Notes under the pieces: model-generated
What the model was told of the DNA's origin: nothing
Database searches by the model: none
What the model saw: only the letters and a program-made list of their open reading frames with translations
Position numbers and translations under genes: made by a program
Shown: positions 1 through 7,311 of the stretch, in pieces
Position numbering within the stretch: the first letter of the stretch is position 1
Layout: each line of letters starts with the position of its first letter
Assembly: GCA_964450805.1 (NCBI GenBank)
Contig: CAYVDD010000001.1
Location: forward strand, 200,595-252,364
DNA: 51,770 bases
Source of the DNA: an uncultured Candidatus Saccharibacteria bacterium
GTDB taxonomy: Bacteria; Patescibacteriota; Minisyncoccia; Minisyncoccales; JANBVM01
Direction of reading: 5' to 3'

Positions 1-859
1 GAATATTAGGGTTTTTCTTTTTTAATTTTTTTAATGTTTTGGATATTTTATCAAGAATCTCTTTCTTGGTCTGTGAAGGTAAAAATCTTATATCAATCTT
101 TATCTCACATTCATCAGGCACAATGTTTATTGCAACACCACCCTTGATGAGCGAAATATTAAAAGCAGAGCCGTAATCAAAAAATGGTTCTTTTTTACCT
201 TCAAGATTTAATTTCCTTAAAGCTGTAATAATCTCTACCATTTGATGAATAGCGTTATTGCCCTTTTTGCTTCTACTTCCTGTATGAGTTGATTCTCCTT
301 TAGTAATAATTTTCAATCTCAACCACCCCCTCATTCCAATAGAAATTTTGTATATACCTTGATAGCCTAAAATACAAACATCAGCTTTTGGTTTCTGTAT
401 TTTTATAATATCTCGTATACCACTATATTCTCCGCTCTGTTCGTTAGCATCAAAACCAAGAATAATATTGCCTTTAAAATTGGAGTCACTGTAAAGTTCT
501 TTAGCTAAATAACAAAAAATAGCAATTCCCACTTTAGAATCAGCCACTCCTCTCCCATACATCTTTGAGTTTTTAATAGTTGCTTTTAATGGAGGGTATT
601 TCCATTTCAAAACATTCCCTACTGGAACAGTATCAAGACAAGATTCTAACCAGATGGTTTTGTTTTTTAGATTCTTAGTGATTTTACAAAACACAGAAGC
701 ATGTTTCTTATTCTCTATGATTTTTGGAGAGAAGCCAAAAGAAGATAGTTTCTTAAAAACTAGATCAGCTATTTTCTTTTCAGAATCAATTCCGTTTTGA
801 GATGGTGTCTCTACTAATTGCTTAGTGAATTTGAGAATATTTAAATATATATTTTTCAT
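1..859 (-). CDS. M20 (ArgE/DapE-like) peptidase family protein, runs off the window edge; metal ligands substituted
   Basis: Not in ORF track. Manual translation from ATG at 859 (ATGA overlap with upstream stop): MKNIYLNILKFTKQLVETPSQNG...ESCLDTVP...MYGRGVADSK...DANEQSG...KGESTHTG...GNNAI...GGVAINIVPDECEIKIDIRF. Confidence 0.85.
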   Translation of the reverse strand, partial: MKNIYLNILKFTKQLVETPSQNGIDSEKKIADLVFKKLSSFGFSPKIIENKKHASVFCKITKNLKNKTIWLESCLDTVPVGNVLKWKYPPLKATIKNSKMYGRGVADSKVGIAIFCYLAKELYSDSNFKGNIILGFDANEQSGEYSGIRDIIKIQKPKADVCILGYQGIYKISIGMRGWLRLKIITKGESTHTGSRSKKGNNAIHQMVEIITALRKLNLEGKKEPFFDYGSAFNISLIKGGVAINIVPDECEIKIDIRFLPSQTKKEILDKISKTLKKLKKKNPNI

Positions 860-2028
860 TGAGAAATTTTAAATGTAGAAAGAATATTATTGTATAATTC
901 CCTATTATTCTCATTATCTACATCTAATAAAGTAATCTGAAACAATTTATTATCTTTTATAAAATAAATGTCTTCTTGAGACCAGGCCATTCCTGAAAAA
1001 GGAGTATATATTTTCAGAGCTGGTATTCCATCTATATCTGCATTTATCTCATCTGGAATATTTTCATAATGAGGAACGTTTTCTTTAATCAATTGAACAA
1101 GGTTGGTATCAGCAGGAGGACTATAATAATCAGAGTGAATAGAATGAAATACTACAAAGCTGGCTCCTGTTAAATCTGATTTTGTTCCTGTGAATGTTCC
1201 AAGAGATACGTTATTTTCATCTTCAGCATTAAAATAACATAAACATTCTTTAGATCTTTGTTCTGGAGGGCTTTGTTTGCAATAGCCAGGTAATGGCCCA
1301 TAAAGACAATCTACAGGGTATTTAACAGAGTACCCATGCTTTTCATTTGTATAAGTTTGCCAATCCTCTGTTGCATATTCAATTTCAGTTTTCTCCAGTT
1401 CACCACATTTTACATTTATATCCCAGTTATCAGTATCAGTTGGAATCCATTGTTCTTCTGCTTCTTTATATCCAGTAAGACCTCCTGAAACCATACAAAC
1501 AGTTTTATCTTTCTTATATCCTCTTGATTCTGAAATAGTGCCAGCTGCAAAATTGTAAACATCTGTTTTAAAATCATTGTTTATAAAAAAATCATGAATA
1601 CTGTCGTATTGTTCACTTGATATTACATTAGCTTCAAACTCTTTTCCAATTACTGTTTCTTCATTTATCTCTGGATCTAGTTTAACAATCCATTTAAATT
1701 CAGCTTCTTTTATTTCTGAAAAACCTATTCCAGTTTCTTGCTTAAGGTCTTCAAGAGCCTCTATGGCTTTATCTGAACTTATACATTCATTTCCATCAAA
1801 GCATTTACCAGGTCCGCAATCACAGACTTGAACTTCATGACTATTATCTAGCGAGCAACCAAAAGGACCAATTAAGCATGAATTAGGAAAATCTTCAATT
1901 GATTTGCAGGCCATTGATGTTGATACTGTTCCTCCAGAATCTATGCAGGTTTGAGCTTTATCAGGTGTTTGAAATCCTAAATAAAAAAATAATATGACGA
2001 TTATAAGAAATGCAATTTTTTTAAGCAT
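856..2028 (-). CDS. Exported/membrane-anchored protein with Cys-rich N-terminal module and PsbP-like C-terminal domain
   Basis: N-terminal hydrophobic helix; Cys cluster in aa 28-82; DWQTYTNEKHGYSVKYP...YNNILSTFK pattern. Confidence 0.6.
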   Translation of the reverse strand: MLKKIAFLIIVILFFYLGFQTPDKAQTCIDSGGTVSTSMACKSIEDFPNSCLIGPFGCSLDNSHEVQVCDCGPGKCFDGNECISSDKAIEALEDLKQETGIGFSEIKEAEFKWIVKLDPEINEETVIGKEFEANVISSEQYDSIHDFFINNDFKTDVYNFAAGTISESRGYKKDKTVCMVSGGLTGYKEAEEQWIPTDTDNWDINVKCGELEKTEIEYATEDWQTYTNEKHGYSVKYPVDCLYGPLPGYCKQSPPEQRSKECLCYFNAEDENNVSLGTFTGTKSDLTGASFVVFHSIHSDYYSPPADTNLVQLIKENVPHYENIPDEINADIDGIPALKIYTPFSGMAWSQEDIYFIKDNKLFQITLLDVDNENNRELYNNILSTFKISQ

Positions 2029-2124
2029 ATTTTATATATATTATTTAATTATACTTTTATCCTACCAAAAATATGAAGAAAAAAAAGAAGGTGTTTACTT
2101 TGTTGACACCTTAAAATAAACACC

Positions 2125-2376
2125 TTAATAATTTTGACATTTAAAGATGAATAACCAACTTCCATCTTTTAGTATTTCTTTTTCAAAACACTCCCATCTT
2201 TGTTCTCCAAAATTATTCAAAAAACTATTTAGTCTTTCTGTAAGAGACATAGGTTTTACATCCTTTTTTGGTATTGCAGATTTTTTAACTGTGTCTGTAA
2301 AACTGTCTAGGTTTATTTCTTTCATATCTTCGGGAAAAAATATTCCTGATGAATATTTCCATTTTGGTTTTGTCAC
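2125..2376 (-). CDS. Small hypothetical protein
   Basis: 83-aa ORF with GTG start, hairpins on both sides (~2089-2111 and ~2429-2462). Confidence 0.5.
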   Translation of the reverse strand: MTKPKWKYSSGIFFPEDMKEINLDSFTDTVKKSAIPKKDVKPMSLTERLNSFLNNFGEQRWECFEKEILKDGSWLFIFKCQNY

Positions 2377-2477
2377 ATTTAATCGCCCTAACCTTTATAG
2401 CATAGATGGTTTTACTAATCAATAATAAAAAAGCCAGTTTTAAAAAGCAAACTGGTTATTTTGTTTTGCGACTTCTT

Positions 2478-2759
2478 TTACAATTTCCAGAAGTCTTTCT
2501 TCAAATTTTTTATTCCAATTGTAATAAGGATAATCATTTCCTTATTTTCTTTACGTCTCTGTTCTGCTTCAGATTCAAATCTTTTCAATAAGGTTTCAGT
2601 TGCATCACTAGAAATTCCAAGATTATAAACCATATATGGGTCTTCTGTATTTATTGAAGTATGTTCTATTAAAAACTCTCTAATTCTTCCAACCCATCCA
2701 CCTTTTTCCTCTAAAGCTGCATGAGTTATGCTGTCTCCAAAAACTAAGATTTTTGGCAT
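2478..2759 (-). pseudogene. Truncated SGNH/GDSL hydrolase
   Basis: Block I FGDSIT and block II VYNLGISSD present; breaks at block III (ITIGIKN instead of GxND); no DxxH. Confidence 0.7.
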
Positions 2760-2866
2760 ATTGTTTAAATATATTTGTGTATTGTTTATTTATATTCTAT
2801 CAAAAAATTAATCAAATAAAAAAAGTCTTGTTCGTTTATCGAATCAAGACAAAATTAAAAGATCCA

Positions 2867-3271
2867 CTAATACCTCCGTAATTCTGTACTCCAATAAGCA
2901 CCACAATGCGGACATCTCTGACCGGCACGAGATGAATTAGAAACTATTTTTCCACATGCGGAACAATGCTTACTTAAAGTTAAACTACCTATAATACCTC
3001 CACATTTTATGATTACATAAAAGATAAGAAGAAAAACTATAACAATACCCACAACACCTATTGCAAAAACTACTATGTGAGTATTTGAAAATGCAAGCAT
3101 TAGGGAGATAGGGGTCAAACAAAGAAACACTAAAAATGCTAATACAATCTTACGATCCTCGCTTGATGCCCTTTTCCAAGTATTATATAAACCATAAGAT
3201 AAAAGTGGTATAATTACAGCAAATATAAGTACAACTACCAGGATTATAAGTCCTAAATCTAAATTATTAAT
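2867..3271 (-). CDS. Membrane protein with C-terminal zinc ribbon (N-terminus probably longer than the ORF track call at 3130)
   Basis: CSAC...CPHC at C-terminus; frame stays open upstream to a TGA at 3278-3280 and encodes further hydrophobic sequence. Confidence 0.6.
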   Translation of the reverse strand: MNNLDLGLIILVVVLIFAVIIPLLSYGLYNTWKRASSEDRKIVLAFLVFLCLTPISLMLAFSNTHIVVFAIGVVGIVIVFLLIFYVIIKCGGIIGSLTLSKHCSACGKIVSNSSRAGQRCPHCGAYWSTELRRY

Positions 3272-3479
3272 TTTACATCACCTTTAACTTGTTTTTTTAT
3301 TTAGTTTTAAAAATATCTATTTTCAGTAAAGACTTATTCTAGTCCTTTGTCAAGCGCTTGAGGTTTAAAGAACTTTTAGACCAATTCAATAAGCCCATTC
3401 CTGACACAAGAACGTTTGAATAAAAGAACGATTTGAAGACTTAAAATTATCTTTTACATCACCTAGAAAGATCGTTTTT

Positions 3480-3507
3480 TAGTCGTAAAATATACCTTGT
3501 GCGACAT
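3480..3507 (-). other. dif/Xer-like recombination site 1: ATGTCGCACAA-GGTATA-TTTTACGACTA
   Basis: 11-6-11 layout with inverted arms (GTCGCACAA / reverse complement GTCGTAAAA); resembles the E. coli dif XerC arm and spacer (GGTGCGCATAA-TGTATA). Confidence 0.6.
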
Positions 3508-3529
3508 TTTTTACGTTAACTACTCAAAT

Positions 3530-4258
3530 TTATGTAATCCATCTCTCAATTCTTGGATTTTGCATCATTTCTTCTTTAATACAATGATTATCCTCTTCCA
3601 GTATTTTAGCTTCCTTGATTAAATTATCTTTCCATTTAATATCAGGACTAATATTCTGATTAATACTAAAAAATAAATTTATCAAAGCTATTGCTAGATT
3701 TCCAAGGAACCAGAAATCCGTTTTTATGTGCAATTCATCTTCTATATCGAAAAAAGGTGTTTCGAAGCCTTTTTTGACTTCAGAAAATTTAAAATTTTTA
3801 AAGACATAAAGAAAATTAGAATGTGCTGCGCTCTTATTTATGATTACTTTTTGTCTTTTAAGGAAATCAGAATGTTTGGGATAATTTTGTTCTAACCATT
3901 TATATCTTTTTATTAAAAGTCCTTTGGGAATATCTAAAGTGCCGTCTTGATTAAGGACGCAAAAATCCTCTTGGCTAGGATTTGCAAGGGCATAGGCCGC
4001 ATTAACCCCAGCTTCAATAACTTGTCTCGCATTCATTTTTGTTTGTACCGAATGCAAACGAGCTGTTGAAAAAAGTGCAAGTGTGTGATGTTTTCTTATT
4101 TGAGAAACAAATGCTACAAAAATCCACATTTTTTCATCGATTCCTTCGATAAAAGTTTGCAATAATTGATTTGAGCTTAAAGCGTTCTTGAAGAATTTTC
4201 CGTATTTTTTTTCTGCTTCTAAAAGCATTTCTTTTTCTCTTTTAATAATGTTTTCCAT
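3530..4258 (-). CDS. Hypothetical cytoplasmic protein, likely alpha-helical
   Basis: 242-aa ORF with ATG start; no family confidently recognised. Confidence 0.7.
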   Translation of the reverse strand: MENIIKREKEMLLEAEKKYGKFFKNALSSNQLLQTFIEGIDEKMWIFVAFVSQIRKHHTLALFSTARLHSVQTKMNARQVIEAGVNAAYALANPSQEDFCVLNQDGTLDIPKGLLIKRYKWLEQNYPKHSDFLKRQKVIINKSAAHSNFLYVFKNFKFSEVKKGFETPFFDIEDELHIKTDFWFLGNLAIALINLFFSINQNISPDIKWKDNLIKEAKILEEDNHCIKEEMMQNPRIERWIT

Positions 4259-4283
4259 ATTTTTTTCGAGTTTGGGCTAAATT

Positions 4284-4616
4284 TTAATTATTTTTTTTCT
4301 TCTTAGACAAAAAACTAATATCTTTGTATGTTTTTCCTAATAAATATGCAACTATAGCTGAAAAAATTGGCAAGCCAGCATCGCTTGAAATTGTATCGTT
4401 TAAGATAAGTAAGGCAAGTAGCATAATGGCCGATATTCCGAATAATATTTGACCTGTAGCATGCAGTGAACTTAATAACATCTGCGCCATTGATATTGGT
4501 GATCCAGAACCACGAAAAATTGACTTTTCTCCGCAAGAGAGAGAAGTAGCATAGATAGTCACTATCACTATTGCTGTAACACCGCCTATGTTTAATATAA
4601 CAATATTGGGATCCAT
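4284..4616 (-). CDS. Small multi-TM membrane protein
   Basis: Three hydrophobic segments; ATG at 4616 preferred because the track's TTG (4643) lies inside a predicted -10 box. Confidence 0.65.
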   Translation of the reverse strand: MDPNIVILNIGGVTAIVIVTIYATSLSCGEKSIFRGSGSPISMAQMLLSSLHATGQILFGISAIMLLALLILNDTISSDAGLPIFSAIVAYLLGKTYKDISFLSKKKKNN

Positions 4617-4637
4617 GATTTTTATTTTTCTTTTATC

Positions 4638-4670
4638 TTTCAAAATAGCCCCATTTCCTCAAAAGGTCAA
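4638..4670 (-). promoter_or_regulatory. Sigma70-like promoter, copy 1 (TTGACC-17-TATTTT)
   Basis: 29/33 identical to 6659-6691. Confidence 0.6.
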
Positions 4671-4680
4671 CGAAATAAAA

Positions 4681-6021
4681 TTAACGGAAAAATCCTTTAA
4701 AAAAGTTTTTAATTGCATCAAATATACTTGCCAAAAAGGATCTTCTAGGAGCTTTTTCTTCTTTTTCTACTTGATTATCCTGTTTTTCTGTATTTTGATC
4801 ATTTTCCGGAATTTCTTTGATTTCAGTTAATTGTGATTCTTTCGAATTTTCAACCTCTCTCTTAAGGGATTCCTTTTCAGTTTGAGATTGATATTCAATT
4901 TTTGCTTCAGCTGCTGATTCTTTTATGGTGGGTATAGGATAATTAATAGTCGATTCAAGCTCTTCTTTTTTCTCTTTTATACATTCACTATTAACAAGTT
5001 CATAACCATTATCGCAAGTACAGTTTTTTGTTAAAGAATTATAGTTTATATTATTGCCGTAAGTATTTCTGCAATAGGTATCGCCGTTTATACATTTCGT
5101 CGTTAGAGGATCAAGTAAATAACCGGTTTTACAAATACATTTATCTTTTAAAATATTGTACTCAGAATAATAGCCGTATAAGTTTTGACAATAATCAGTT
5201 CGGCTTACACATTGACTATTGGAATCCAAAATATAGCCATAATCACATCCACAAATATCTGTCCAAGAATCATAAGATGAATGATAACCATGTAAATTTC
5301 GACAATAACTATCCTCGTTTACGCACTGATCGTTGGAATCGAAGACGTAACCATATCTACATTCACAAGTGTTTGTTGAAGAATCATATGACGAATTGTA
5401 TCCATATTGCTGATGGCATAAAGTATCTCCATCAACACATTGTCCGCCCGATAGAACATAGCCATAATTACATTCGCAGCTATCAGTTAAAGTATTATAT
5501 CTGGAATTATATCCAAATTTATCGTGGCAATATTGCGATGTTGATATACAAGCAGTTTTTCCTAGAAAATCTTTACCAAGAATATACCCACTTATACACT
5601 TACAACTATCTGTTAAATAGTCGCTTGTTGCCCACATACCATACTGGTCCCGACACCATTGAGTCATTGATATACATTTTCCGTTAGAAACTACATATCC
5701 GGAATAACATTTACAGGAGTCAGAAAGACTATCATAATAGGAATTAGAAGGACAGGTTGGAATGCTCGGGCTAGTATAGGAAGGATAATCGTAATAACCC
5801 CGACATTTTACCATTGAGGAATAACTAACACTGCTATTTCTCCATCCATCATTACAAATAACGCTACCGTCCCAATCAGGACCTGCAGCGCAATTTACTC
5901 CTCCATGGCTTGAGCATGCGCCACTTATTGCTTCAGTATTATTGATAGGAAATATTACAAAAAATAGCAAAACAGATATAGATATTAACGGCCACAATAA
6001 TTTCTTAATTTTTATTTCCAT
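4681..6021 (-). CDS. Secreted Cys/Tyr-rich repeat protein with EGF-like modules
   Basis: Signal/TM helix; SGACSSHGGV motif; seven C...CxCxxGY...C repeats; charged stalk; amphipathic C-terminus. Confidence 0.85.
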   Translation of the reverse strand: MEIKIKKLLWPLISISVLLFFVIFPINNTEAISGACSSHGGVNCAAGPDWDGSVICNDGWRNSSVSYSSMVKCRGYYDYPSYTSPSIPTCPSNSYYDSLSDSCKCYSGYVVSNGKCISMTQWCRDQYGMWATSDYLTDSCKCISGYILGKDFLGKTACISTSQYCHDKFGYNSRYNTLTDSCECNYGYVLSGGQCVDGDTLCHQQYGYNSSYDSSTNTCECRYGYVFDSNDQCVNEDSYCRNLHGYHSSYDSWTDICGCDYGYILDSNSQCVSRTDYCQNLYGYYSEYNILKDKCICKTGYLLDPLTTKCINGDTYCRNTYGNNINYNSLTKNCTCDNGYELVNSECIKEKKEELESTINYPIPTIKESAAEAKIEYQSQTEKESLKREVENSKESQLTEIKEIPENDQNTEKQDNQVEKEEKAPRRSFLASIFDAIKNFFKGFFR

Positions 6022-6030
6022 ATTATGCCT

Positions 6031-6654
6031 TTAATTTACGCCTGTTCTCTTACCATAAATTATATAAATGAATGCTTTAAAGTATATAACTCTTAGAATT
6101 AAGATAAATAGACCTAGAGATGCACAAAAAGTTAAAAATGACTCTAGGTAATAAACAATATTTCTTTCATAAGCAATAATTTTATCAGAAGTACAATCTA
6201 TATCCTTATAGATTAAACAATATCTAGCTTTAGTGCTTTCATTTAATTTTTCATTAATAAGACTAACAACTTGTTCTTTGCTAAATGTGATATAAAAATT
6301 ATTAGCAAGTATTAATTCAGCTACTTCTTCTATGTTTCCTTTCAAATCAGGACTACAAATGCTTTTTTCAAGATCATAATCTGAAACATATTTTATTTCT
6401 TTATTGTCCTGTAAACACCCTATTTTATAATTCAATATATTAAATGCGGGAATGGTATTTGCCACATCTTGAGAACTTGTTTTGGTGAATTCTTGTAAAT
6501 TATACTTTATATCAACGTTAAAAGTATTTTCTGGTATTGAAATGCCTCCAAATAAAAAATACACTGTAGAAAATAATATTATAAGAATAAAGAATATCAC
6601 AACAAATAATCTATGCCACCACTTTTTCTGTAATTCTTCTTGTAAGGAAATCAT
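6031..6654 (-). CDS. Membrane protein with two TM helices flanking an extracytoplasmic domain
   Basis: Hydrophobic helices near both termini; 4 Cys in the loop. Confidence 0.7.
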   Translation of the reverse strand: MISLQEELQKKWWHRLFVVIFFILIILFSTVYFLFGGISIPENTFNVDIKYNLQEFTKTSSQDVANTIPAFNILNYKIGCLQDNKEIKYVSDYDLEKSICSPDLKGNIEEVAELILANNFYITFSKEQVVSLINEKLNESTKARYCLIYKDIDCTSDKIIAYERNIVYYLESFLTFCASLGLFILILRVIYFKAFIYIIYGKRTGVN

Positions 6655-6658
6655 ATTA

Positions 6659-6691
6659 TTTCAAAATAGCTCTATTTTTTCAAAAGGTCAA
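6659..6691 (-). promoter_or_regulatory. Sigma70-like promoter, copy 2 (TTGACC-17-TATTTT)
   Basis: -10 box lies 8 nt upstream of the ATG at 6654. Confidence 0.6.
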
Positions 6692-6743
6692 TAAAAAGGA
6701 AATCATTTGCAAATTTTTCTGAAAAGACGTAAAAAGTAATATT

Positions 6744-7283
6744 ATGCCTCCTTCATCATCGGAAGAAAGAAAAATACATTTTTCAGAACTTGATCCACAA
6801 GTTCAACTGAGGTTCAAAGAATCATTTTTGAAGATTATAGAATCCGTTGCTACTAGTAGAATGGGAACCTTGCCTGCGCTCAGCGCTTTATGTGTTGCAA
6901 TGTTGGTAGTAGTAAGTCTAAGACAAGACTTAATACCTCTAAGTGATTTTTCAGTTAAGCTTTTGATATCAATTTTGCTTGTCTTTATACCAGTTAGTCT
7001 AAGAGCTTATTTTACGGATTTGAATCAGGCGATGCATTCGGCTTTCAAATCGCTCAAAGAGTTTGATGGAACAGATTTATATGTAGAAATGGAAAAGATC
7101 TTGAAAGAAAAATCATGTTCATCAAAGTTTGTAGCCTTATTACCAGACCTAACAACTCTCATCCTACTTTTTATAGTTTTATATATACTCTGGATAATGT
7201 GGAATGATTTACTTCCTTTACTTTTAACGGGTATTCTTTTTATTCTTTCATTATCTGAACCCGGAAATGATGAATCAACTTAA
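6744..7283 (+). CDS. Hypothetical membrane protein
   Basis: 179 aa, about four hydrophobic segments. Confidence 0.7.
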   Translation: MPPSSSEERKIHFSELDPQVQLRFKESFLKIIESVATSRMGTLPALSALCVAMLVVVSLRQDLIPLSDFSVKLLISILLVFIPVSLRAYFTDLNQAMHSAFKSLKEFDGTDLYVEMEKILKEKSCSSKFVALLPDLTTLILLFIVLYILWIMWNDLLPLLLTGILFILSLSEPGNDEST

Positions 7284-7311
7284 GCGTCGCACAACATAGA
7301 TTGCACGAATT
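7284..7311 (+). other. dif/Xer-like recombination site 2: GCGTCGCACAA-CATAGA-TTGCACGAATT
   Basis: Same GTCGCACAA arm as site 1, 6-bp spacer, partly inverted right arm; begins immediately after the stop codon at 7283. Confidence 0.55.

Follow-up and report, generated by a model that had tools for sequence, protein, structure and literature searches.

A five-gene block between inverted dif-like sites at the replication terminus of a candidate phyla radiation bacterium: a likely chromosomal, single-Xer analogue of the Acinetobacter dif modules

The 51,770-nt window analyzed here (G000:C1:200,595-252,364) contains, close to its left end, a block of five genes flanked by two inversely oriented 28-bp dif-like sites of 11-6-11 layout, the arrangement by which dif modules are recognized in Acinetobacter. 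The source genome G000, of a candidate phyla radiation (CPR) bacterium, is a 640-kb genome in two contigs, and the block lies among core genes on the 636-kb chromosome contig C1. It is one unit of a five-site array located at the replication terminus beside the only xer gene and the likely primary dif, a context that an earlier note on this DNA had overlooked. The same ordered pair of sites surrounds unrelated cargo in relatives, and homology between relatives breaks at the sites. The best reading of this arrangement is that it is likely a chromosomal, single-Xer analogue of the Acinetobacter dif modules. The closest named relatives of the recombinase were found in Candidatus Nealsonbacteria (93% and 79% identity).

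The two sites are named here after the first base of their spacers, the G site (GGTATA) and the C site (CATAGA); their sequences and those of the other features are given in Table 1. Both contain the arm GTCGCACAA, which faces inward in each case, and the outermost stop codons of the block are 22 nt from the G site and 0 nt from the C site. The positions and strands of both 28-mers, the common 9-bp inward arm and the distances to the stop codons, all given in the earlier note, were confirmed. A pattern derived from these sites gave four matches in the window (two sites on two strands) against 0.07 expected. The dif/Xer-like nature proposed for the sites was borne out with an independent matrix built from 56 two-armed sites of other genomes without regard to the spacer: on the 636-kb contig the two sites ranked second and third (25.1 and 20.6 bits), and the maxima in five codon-shuffled genomes were 11.1-14.6 bits. 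The sixth match of the matrix, at C1:546,548 (15.2 bits), was rejected as it corresponded to a tRNA-Gly gene. The spacers of the C and G sites are equal at three of six positions in either alignment, and the two bases beside the conserved arm differ.

Five exact copies of GTCGCACAA are present in the genome, all of them within C1:197,407-207,888 (10.5 kb). The cumulative GC skew reaches its maximum at C1:198,260, dnaA is located at 515 kb, half a genome from the array, and the strand polarity of GGGNAGGG, the E. coli FtsK-orienting polar sequence (KOPS) motif, switches between C1:137,093 and 199,486. A check against the GC-skew terminus, as suggested in the earlier note, placed the sites at the terminus. 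The statement that no recombinase gene lies in the window was correct, but the sole PF00589 gene of the genome is only 2.2-3.1 kb to the left, with three more sites around it; the presence of a single such gene agrees with the single-recombinase system that had been proposed. The deduced Xer protein retains the catalytic motifs in an alignment with E. coli XerD. Its scores are under the NCBIfam cut-offs for XerC, XerD, XerA and XerS, which does not support orthology to these four, and the integron integrase model TIGR02249 gave 87.8 bits against a cut-off of 265. Matches to the xer protein were obtained in 59 of 61 genomes. The top-scoring site of the matrix search lies in the xer leader and is likely the primary dif of a single-recombinase module. 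It is flanked by two one-armed half-sites, and the G000 array alternates C site, G site and half-site. Genes for FtsK and ComEC are also present in the genome. A serine recombinase gene at C1:29,290, far from the array, was set aside as the agent, 11-6-11 sites being unsuited to serine recombinases.

A total of 80 loci around recombinase matches (1.19 Mb) were surveyed; the relatives are not independent, and all counts are descriptive and not tests. An inverted CATAGA site was the next site on the conserved-arm side, 0.9-6.6 kb away, in six of the 18 GGTATA sites (G000, G002, G003, G007, G008 and L187, the latter selected through its CATAGA site). The same ordered C-G pair was found in three genera of the family, with unrelated, non-phage cargo. 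The slot between the sites contains genes for four hydrophobic or exported proteins and one soluble protein in G000; an ATPase, a C5 methylase and Vsr in G002; a nitroreductase in G003; a Tsp45I/Eco57I restriction-modification (R-M) system plus a LexA-like gene in G007; HIT, radical SAM and TehB in G008; and a D12 methylase pair in L187, a metagenome contig. The specialization in surface-gene cassettes suggested in the earlier note did not hold, since the slot of the relatives carries restriction-modification, nitroreductase or metabolic genes.

Between G000 and G002, which belong to the same genus, DNA homology starts at the G site and extends 146 bp outward only, and at the C site it is limited to a 31-bp island. 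Metagenome runs were compared as contigs, which show presence only; run X1 may be the source of this DNA, and neither run X3 (share 0.08) nor the parts without coverage were counted as evidence. In the sample of run X2, contigs matched xer and the neighboring module at about 97-99% and no long cargo match was obtained; the match of one 431-bp contig began at window position 7286, the start of the C-site arm, and continued outward, while the 29 letters at the beginning of this contig had no match. The change of gene content at the sites, a check proposed in the earlier note, was borne out by the cargo of the relatives and by these homology breakpoints, within an alternating layout like that of dif modules.

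Several observations weigh against an exchange of cargo at these sites. No C partner was found for 12 of the 18 G sites, 11 having no classified site on that side (seven of these with at least 8.7 kb of DNA examined) and one having a half-site; because of this, the C-G pair is mostly a family-level feature. The breakpoint in run X2 consists of the unmatched letters of that one short contig, and conserved arms yield short homology islands through selection alone. An identical C-G module in two contexts was not seen, and the five genes were not encountered together anywhere else. Three distant homologs of the 179-aa protein were detected in 300 genomes, all of them lacking a site within 1.5 kb, and the four homologs of the 242-aa protein, from 400 genomes, had no two-armed site next to them. 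Genes are also gained and lost away from the sites. The content of the neighboring module is not the same in G000, G001 and G002, although no sites lie within it, and in the contig of G001 the slot is missing together with both sites, the junctions being at short AT-rich microhomology. In an X2 contig 932 bp beside dif are replaced, one end being about 80 bp from a site, and about 370 bp outside the C site are additional in G000. Finally, no inversion or excision joints at the sites were present in the contigs of three runs.

In the 80 loci the arm was counted 151 times, as compared with 43-49 times in codon shuffles, and four classes of sites were found: dif (n = 39, with spacer TGTAGG in 21), half-sites (arm plus TATTAA, second arm not conserved, n = 42), GGTATA and CATAGA, a weaker second arm being retained in the latter two. 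Both arms of the two-armed sites resemble one motif. By a strict pattern, 27 of 70 loci had a dif-class site no more than 300 bp upstream of the xer gene, and adjacent non-dif sites were inverted in 13 of 18 pairs. KOPS-like motifs (up to one mismatch) pointed toward dif from one side in 13/39 and from the other in 11/39, with none pointing away. An inner KOPS-like motif was found within 60 bp in 15/46 half-sites (background 3.7%), 13 of them at 24-26 bp, all inward and 0 in the opposite direction; on the conserved-arm side of the G sites (0/17) and C sites (0/10) none was found. Ten of 43 half-sites contain, within the spacer, the stop codon of a converging gene of at least 80 aa; if only the 24 half-sites with a stop at 60 bp or less are counted, the proportion is 10/24, and the comparison value for any TTAATA is 43/2933. 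In G000 this stop codon belongs to the DUF3175 gene, and the same junction, the sole recurring module end, was found on the other side of xer in G069.

The half-sites of G000 (C1:197,390-197,470 and 199,470-199,545) belong to an extended inverted repeat (110 nt, 70%), which includes a terminator-like hairpin with a KOPS or KOPS-like motif in its loop; matching half-site spacers could permit inversion of the xer-dif segment. Within its array (L038), G007 has a short relic of the 5′-end of xer at C1 about 420,150-420,250, and a third, degenerate terminator-plus-half-site copy at C1 416,500. A lone two-armed site lies 47-60 kb from xer in G002 and G003 (G002:C1:383,221 and G003:C1:130,414; L294 and L293), adjoining an ORF of 161-163 aa with similarity between the two genomes and no match in G000. 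An identical long array of six or more sites with varied spacers was found in L284 and L285, from genomes placed in different families (G243 and G183); this corresponds to a recent transfer or to mis-binning, and in view of the possible mis-binning the array was not used as evidence of transfer. The near-perfect palindrome ATGTCGCACAA-CATAGA-TTTTGCGACAT was observed beside ftsW/murG/gltX homologs in many metagenome contigs (L134-L212); it is probably the primary dif of other Paceibacteria, and the spacer of the C site may derive from it. A metagenome scan for CATAGA sites gave 116 loci, with flanks for 80, mostly with the full palindrome and so a weak test of pairing; a G partner was found in L187 only and xer in L159 and L191 only.

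On balance, the cargo of the slot is probably swapped by Xer in two crossovers between matching spacers; alternatively, Xer would insert modules in pairs at a single site. Like XerS and XerH, this Xer would bind the conserved arm strongly and occupy the variable arm through cooperativity. The asymmetry between conserved and variable arm would replace the XerC/XerD asymmetry of Acinetobacter, and arms-in and arms-out modules would therefore alternate. Crossovers would require near-identical spacers, and because the spacers agree at just three of six positions, no recombination is expected between CATAGA and GGTATA, or of either with dif. This would make the block stable against excision and inversion, yet exchangeable in trans, through one crossover per spacer class with incoming DNA bearing matching sites, or insertable as a module pair at one site. 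The incoming DNA would stem from relatives, through competence (ComEC), or from phages with the same site. With KOPS located inside the innermost half-sites, FtsK would load beyond the Xer-bound outer sites, and the true dif would be the only one within its reach. A wider proposal, made here tentatively, is that in Nealsonbacteria-type CPR bacteria one housekeeping Xer serves as an integron-like platform for gene capture and exchange located at the terminus. One-armed half-sites would capture genes at stop codons, spacer-coded slots would trade their cargo with that of transforming DNA or phages in a natural form of recombinase-mediated cassette exchange, and the KOPS inside the innermost sites would shield chromosome segregation from the array.

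Phage sequences bear on another explanation, namely that Xer-exploiting circles (phages or satellites like the integrative mobile elements exploiting Xer, IMEX) integrated serially by single crossovers and then decayed, the C and G sites being leftover attachment sites without any two-site exchange. In G043 (C1:60-29,690; L433, L042, L427) a 29.6-kb prophage with genes for terminase, portal, capsid and tape measure (tailed) lies between two direct TGTAGG-spacer sites at dif, between the conserved gene after gltX and xer. No second Xer-like gene was found in G043 with the xer query, and because this query gave just one match the element is likely an IMEX prophage in a CPR bacterium; a prophage at dif therefore indicates that the site family is recombinogenic. 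In addition, G003 contains seven direct copies of the TCTATG spacer (CATAGA reversed) with duplicated flanks, bracketing cargo blocks, which point to repeated insertion at the C site. The palindromic site is present in an estimated about 320 viral stretches, with 116 distinct contexts seen and 67 of 78 examined outside long ORFs; the spacers were within one mismatch of GGTATA in 27/116 and of CATAGA in 15/116 (no null was computed). These three findings would suit serial integration and decay. However, one integration leaves direct repeats with the same spacer, and the block of G000 is inverted with different spacers; nor would this explanation account for the same ordered pair around unrelated, non-phage cargo in three genera, and it is considered unlikely, although not negligible. 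The exact TGTAGG dif was in no viral contig, and none of eight viral contigs with C or G sites had both around cargo within 5 kb. Many phage contigs (L249, L253, L256, also L251; L302-L421) contain one copy each of the palindromic site, in several cases just upstream of the gene for the terminase large subunit, and this site may mark CPR phages that use the host Xer.

It is rather improbable that the extra sites are non-recombining, Xer-binding organizers of the terminus (FtsK or fork stops), the cargo being turned over by illegitimate recombination in a hotspot at the terminus and the match of the breakpoints being only apparent through selection. The lack of a conserved second arm in the half-sites, their KOPS-like motifs 24-26 bp inside in 13/46 and the several gene changes that ignore the sites are what would be expected from such organizers, but pure binding leaves the conserved, class-specific 6-bp spacers unexplained, the G and C sites keep a second arm and have no inner KOPS, the direct spacer duplications of G003 and the G043 prophage point to crossover, and the G001 contig does without C and G. 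A shufflon or phase switch, with Xer inverting a five-gene surface block, is very improbable: the sites are inversely oriented and four of the five proteins of the cargo seem to be exported or bound to the membrane, but the disagreement of the spacers, including the two bases next to the conserved arm, makes the shuffling between these two sites proposed in the earlier note unlikely, the cargo carries its own promoter-like repeats so that inversion would switch nothing obvious, no inversion joint was present in the contigs of the three runs, and the cargo of relatives is R-M or metabolic.

Five ORFs are located between the sites, four on the minus strand and one on the plus strand (Table 1), and no recognized phage or replication genes were found among them. 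Of the cargo, described earlier as mostly membrane or surface proteins, four of the five proteins have hydrophobic segments and the 242-aa protein has none. No PADLOC or NCBIfam matches were obtained for the cargo proteins, nor any Pfam match for the 242-aa protein; its look-alikes by features included DUF5677/DUF6988 clusters, which were taken as a lead only, and one homolog lies within an apparent type I R-M operon. The 446-aa Cys-rich protein is likely exported. Two promoter-like repeats inside the cargo (window 4638-4675 and 6659-6696) are 84% identical and show TTGACC-N17-TATTTT on the minus strand. The neighboring module also includes TspO-like and DUF3175 genes just left of the window. 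Its GDSL lipase fragment (93 aa, window 2478-2759) has a 208-aa homolog in G164 (L286), likewise on the variable-arm side of a G site.

Table 1. Location of the sites and genes of the array. Positions preceded by C1 are those of the chromosome contig; all others are those of the window.
Feature	Position	Strand	Remarks
Half-site, TATTAA spacer	C1:197390-197417	-	Other flank of xer/dif
xer	C1:197461-198417	-	Only PF00589 gene of the genome; 2.2 kb left of window
Primary dif candidate, ATGTCGCACAA-TGATGG-TAAAGCGACGT	C1:198462-198489	-	Top matrix score, 36.2 bits; in xer leader
Half-site, TATTAG spacer	C1:199517-199544	+	DUF3175 stop codon in spacer; KOPS 25 bp inside
Neighboring module, variable arms inward	1-3479 (in-window part)	-	M20 hydrolase, 390-aa PsbP-like, small ORFs, GDSL fragment
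G site, two-armed dif-like, ATGTCGCACAA-GGTATA-TTTTACGACTA	3480-3507	-	Conserved arm toward five-gene cargo
242-aa soluble protein	3530-4258	-	No hydrophobic segment
119-aa protein	4284-4643	-	Two hydrophobic segments; promoter-like TTGACC-N17-TATTTT just upstream
446-aa Cys-rich (32 Cys) TIL/EGF-like repeat protein	4681-6021	-	N-terminal hydrophobic segment
207-aa protein	6031-6654	-	Two hydrophobic segments; second promoter-like repeat copy upstream
179-aa protein	6744-7283	+	Three hydrophobic segments; stop codon abuts C site
C site, two-armed dif-like, GCGTCGCACAA-CATAGA-TTGCACGAATT	7284-7311	+	Conserved arm toward cargo

If the proposed exchange is true, a chromosomal, one-recombinase equivalent in CPR bacteria would mean that the dif-module strategy arose more than once, and would provide a concrete route by which 0.6-Mb genomes gain defense and surface genes. 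With a likely dif, recombinase and spacer code named by the locus, the system could be tested in E. coli, with no need to grow the organism itself. Half-sites whose spacer contains a stop codon may be relevant to the first formation of such modules, and the hundreds of phage contigs with the same site may mark CPR phages. Genes flanked by pdif sites have reportedly been found outside Acinetobacter (Shao et al. 2023). In the available text of PMC13141974 (2026) the dif-module system is called unique to Acinetobacter and is said to require XerC, XerD and plasmids. No paper on dif/Xer of CPR bacteria was found in the literature searched, which leaves out most subscription papers.

In integrons a tyrosine recombinase gene stands beside an array of captured genes. 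The system described here is integron-like in having the recombinase gene next to the array and stop codons inside the site in part of the half-sites. Unlike integrons, it gave no IntI match above the cut-off, its sites are dif-like 11-6-11 and not of the folded attC type, no search with attC models having been made, and its cargo is found in both orientations with its own promoter-like sequences. Mobile DNA on host Xer/dif-like sites of the terminus is shared with IMEX (CTX, VGJ and TLC phages, GGI, LME-1), according to the accessible parts of PMC5357621 and PMC9765430, the latter describing IMEX at a single-Xer dif in Legionella. Direct attachment sites with the same spacer at dif, as in IMEX, are found in the G043 prophage but not in the block of G000, with its inverted sites and unlike spacers.

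The one xer gene with an adjacent dif at the terminus is also the arrangement of XerS/difSL, XerH/difH, XerL/dif and archaeal XerA/dif, the first two being reviewed in PMC5357621 and the rest drawn from the accessible parts of that paper and PMC9765430; imperfect inverted arms with one preferred half, and the presence of FtsK and polar KOPS, are likewise common to both, as far as these texts go. The arm sequence differs here, and the Xer remains under the cut-offs of the families named above. In the accessible parts of the same two papers, arrays of spacer-classed sites with exchanged cargo are not described for single-Xer systems.

The closest resemblance is to the dif modules of Acinetobacter, with accessory genes between inverted 11-6-11 sites, alternating arm-in and arm-out, module replacement and diverse cargo. 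Within the text available for these papers, single modules in Acinetobacter replace each other with near-identical spacers on each side (Ambrose, Xiao and Hall, PMC13141974), pdif recombination requires identical or near-identical spacers (PMC13141974), pdif sites cointegrate rather than excise (PMC11705084) and chromosomal dif-module islands are known (PMC12907356). In contrast to Acinetobacter, one recombinase is present here instead of XerC plus XerD, and the asymmetry is that of a conserved and a variable arm. The array lies on the chromosome next to xer and the primary dif, and one-armed half-sites with KOPS are among its members; Rep_3/OrfX plasmid carriage was not found, and no plasmid vehicle was seen. 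The slot would work like a dif module but stands outside the Acinetobacter family, being neither served by a XerC/XerD pair nor plasmid-borne.

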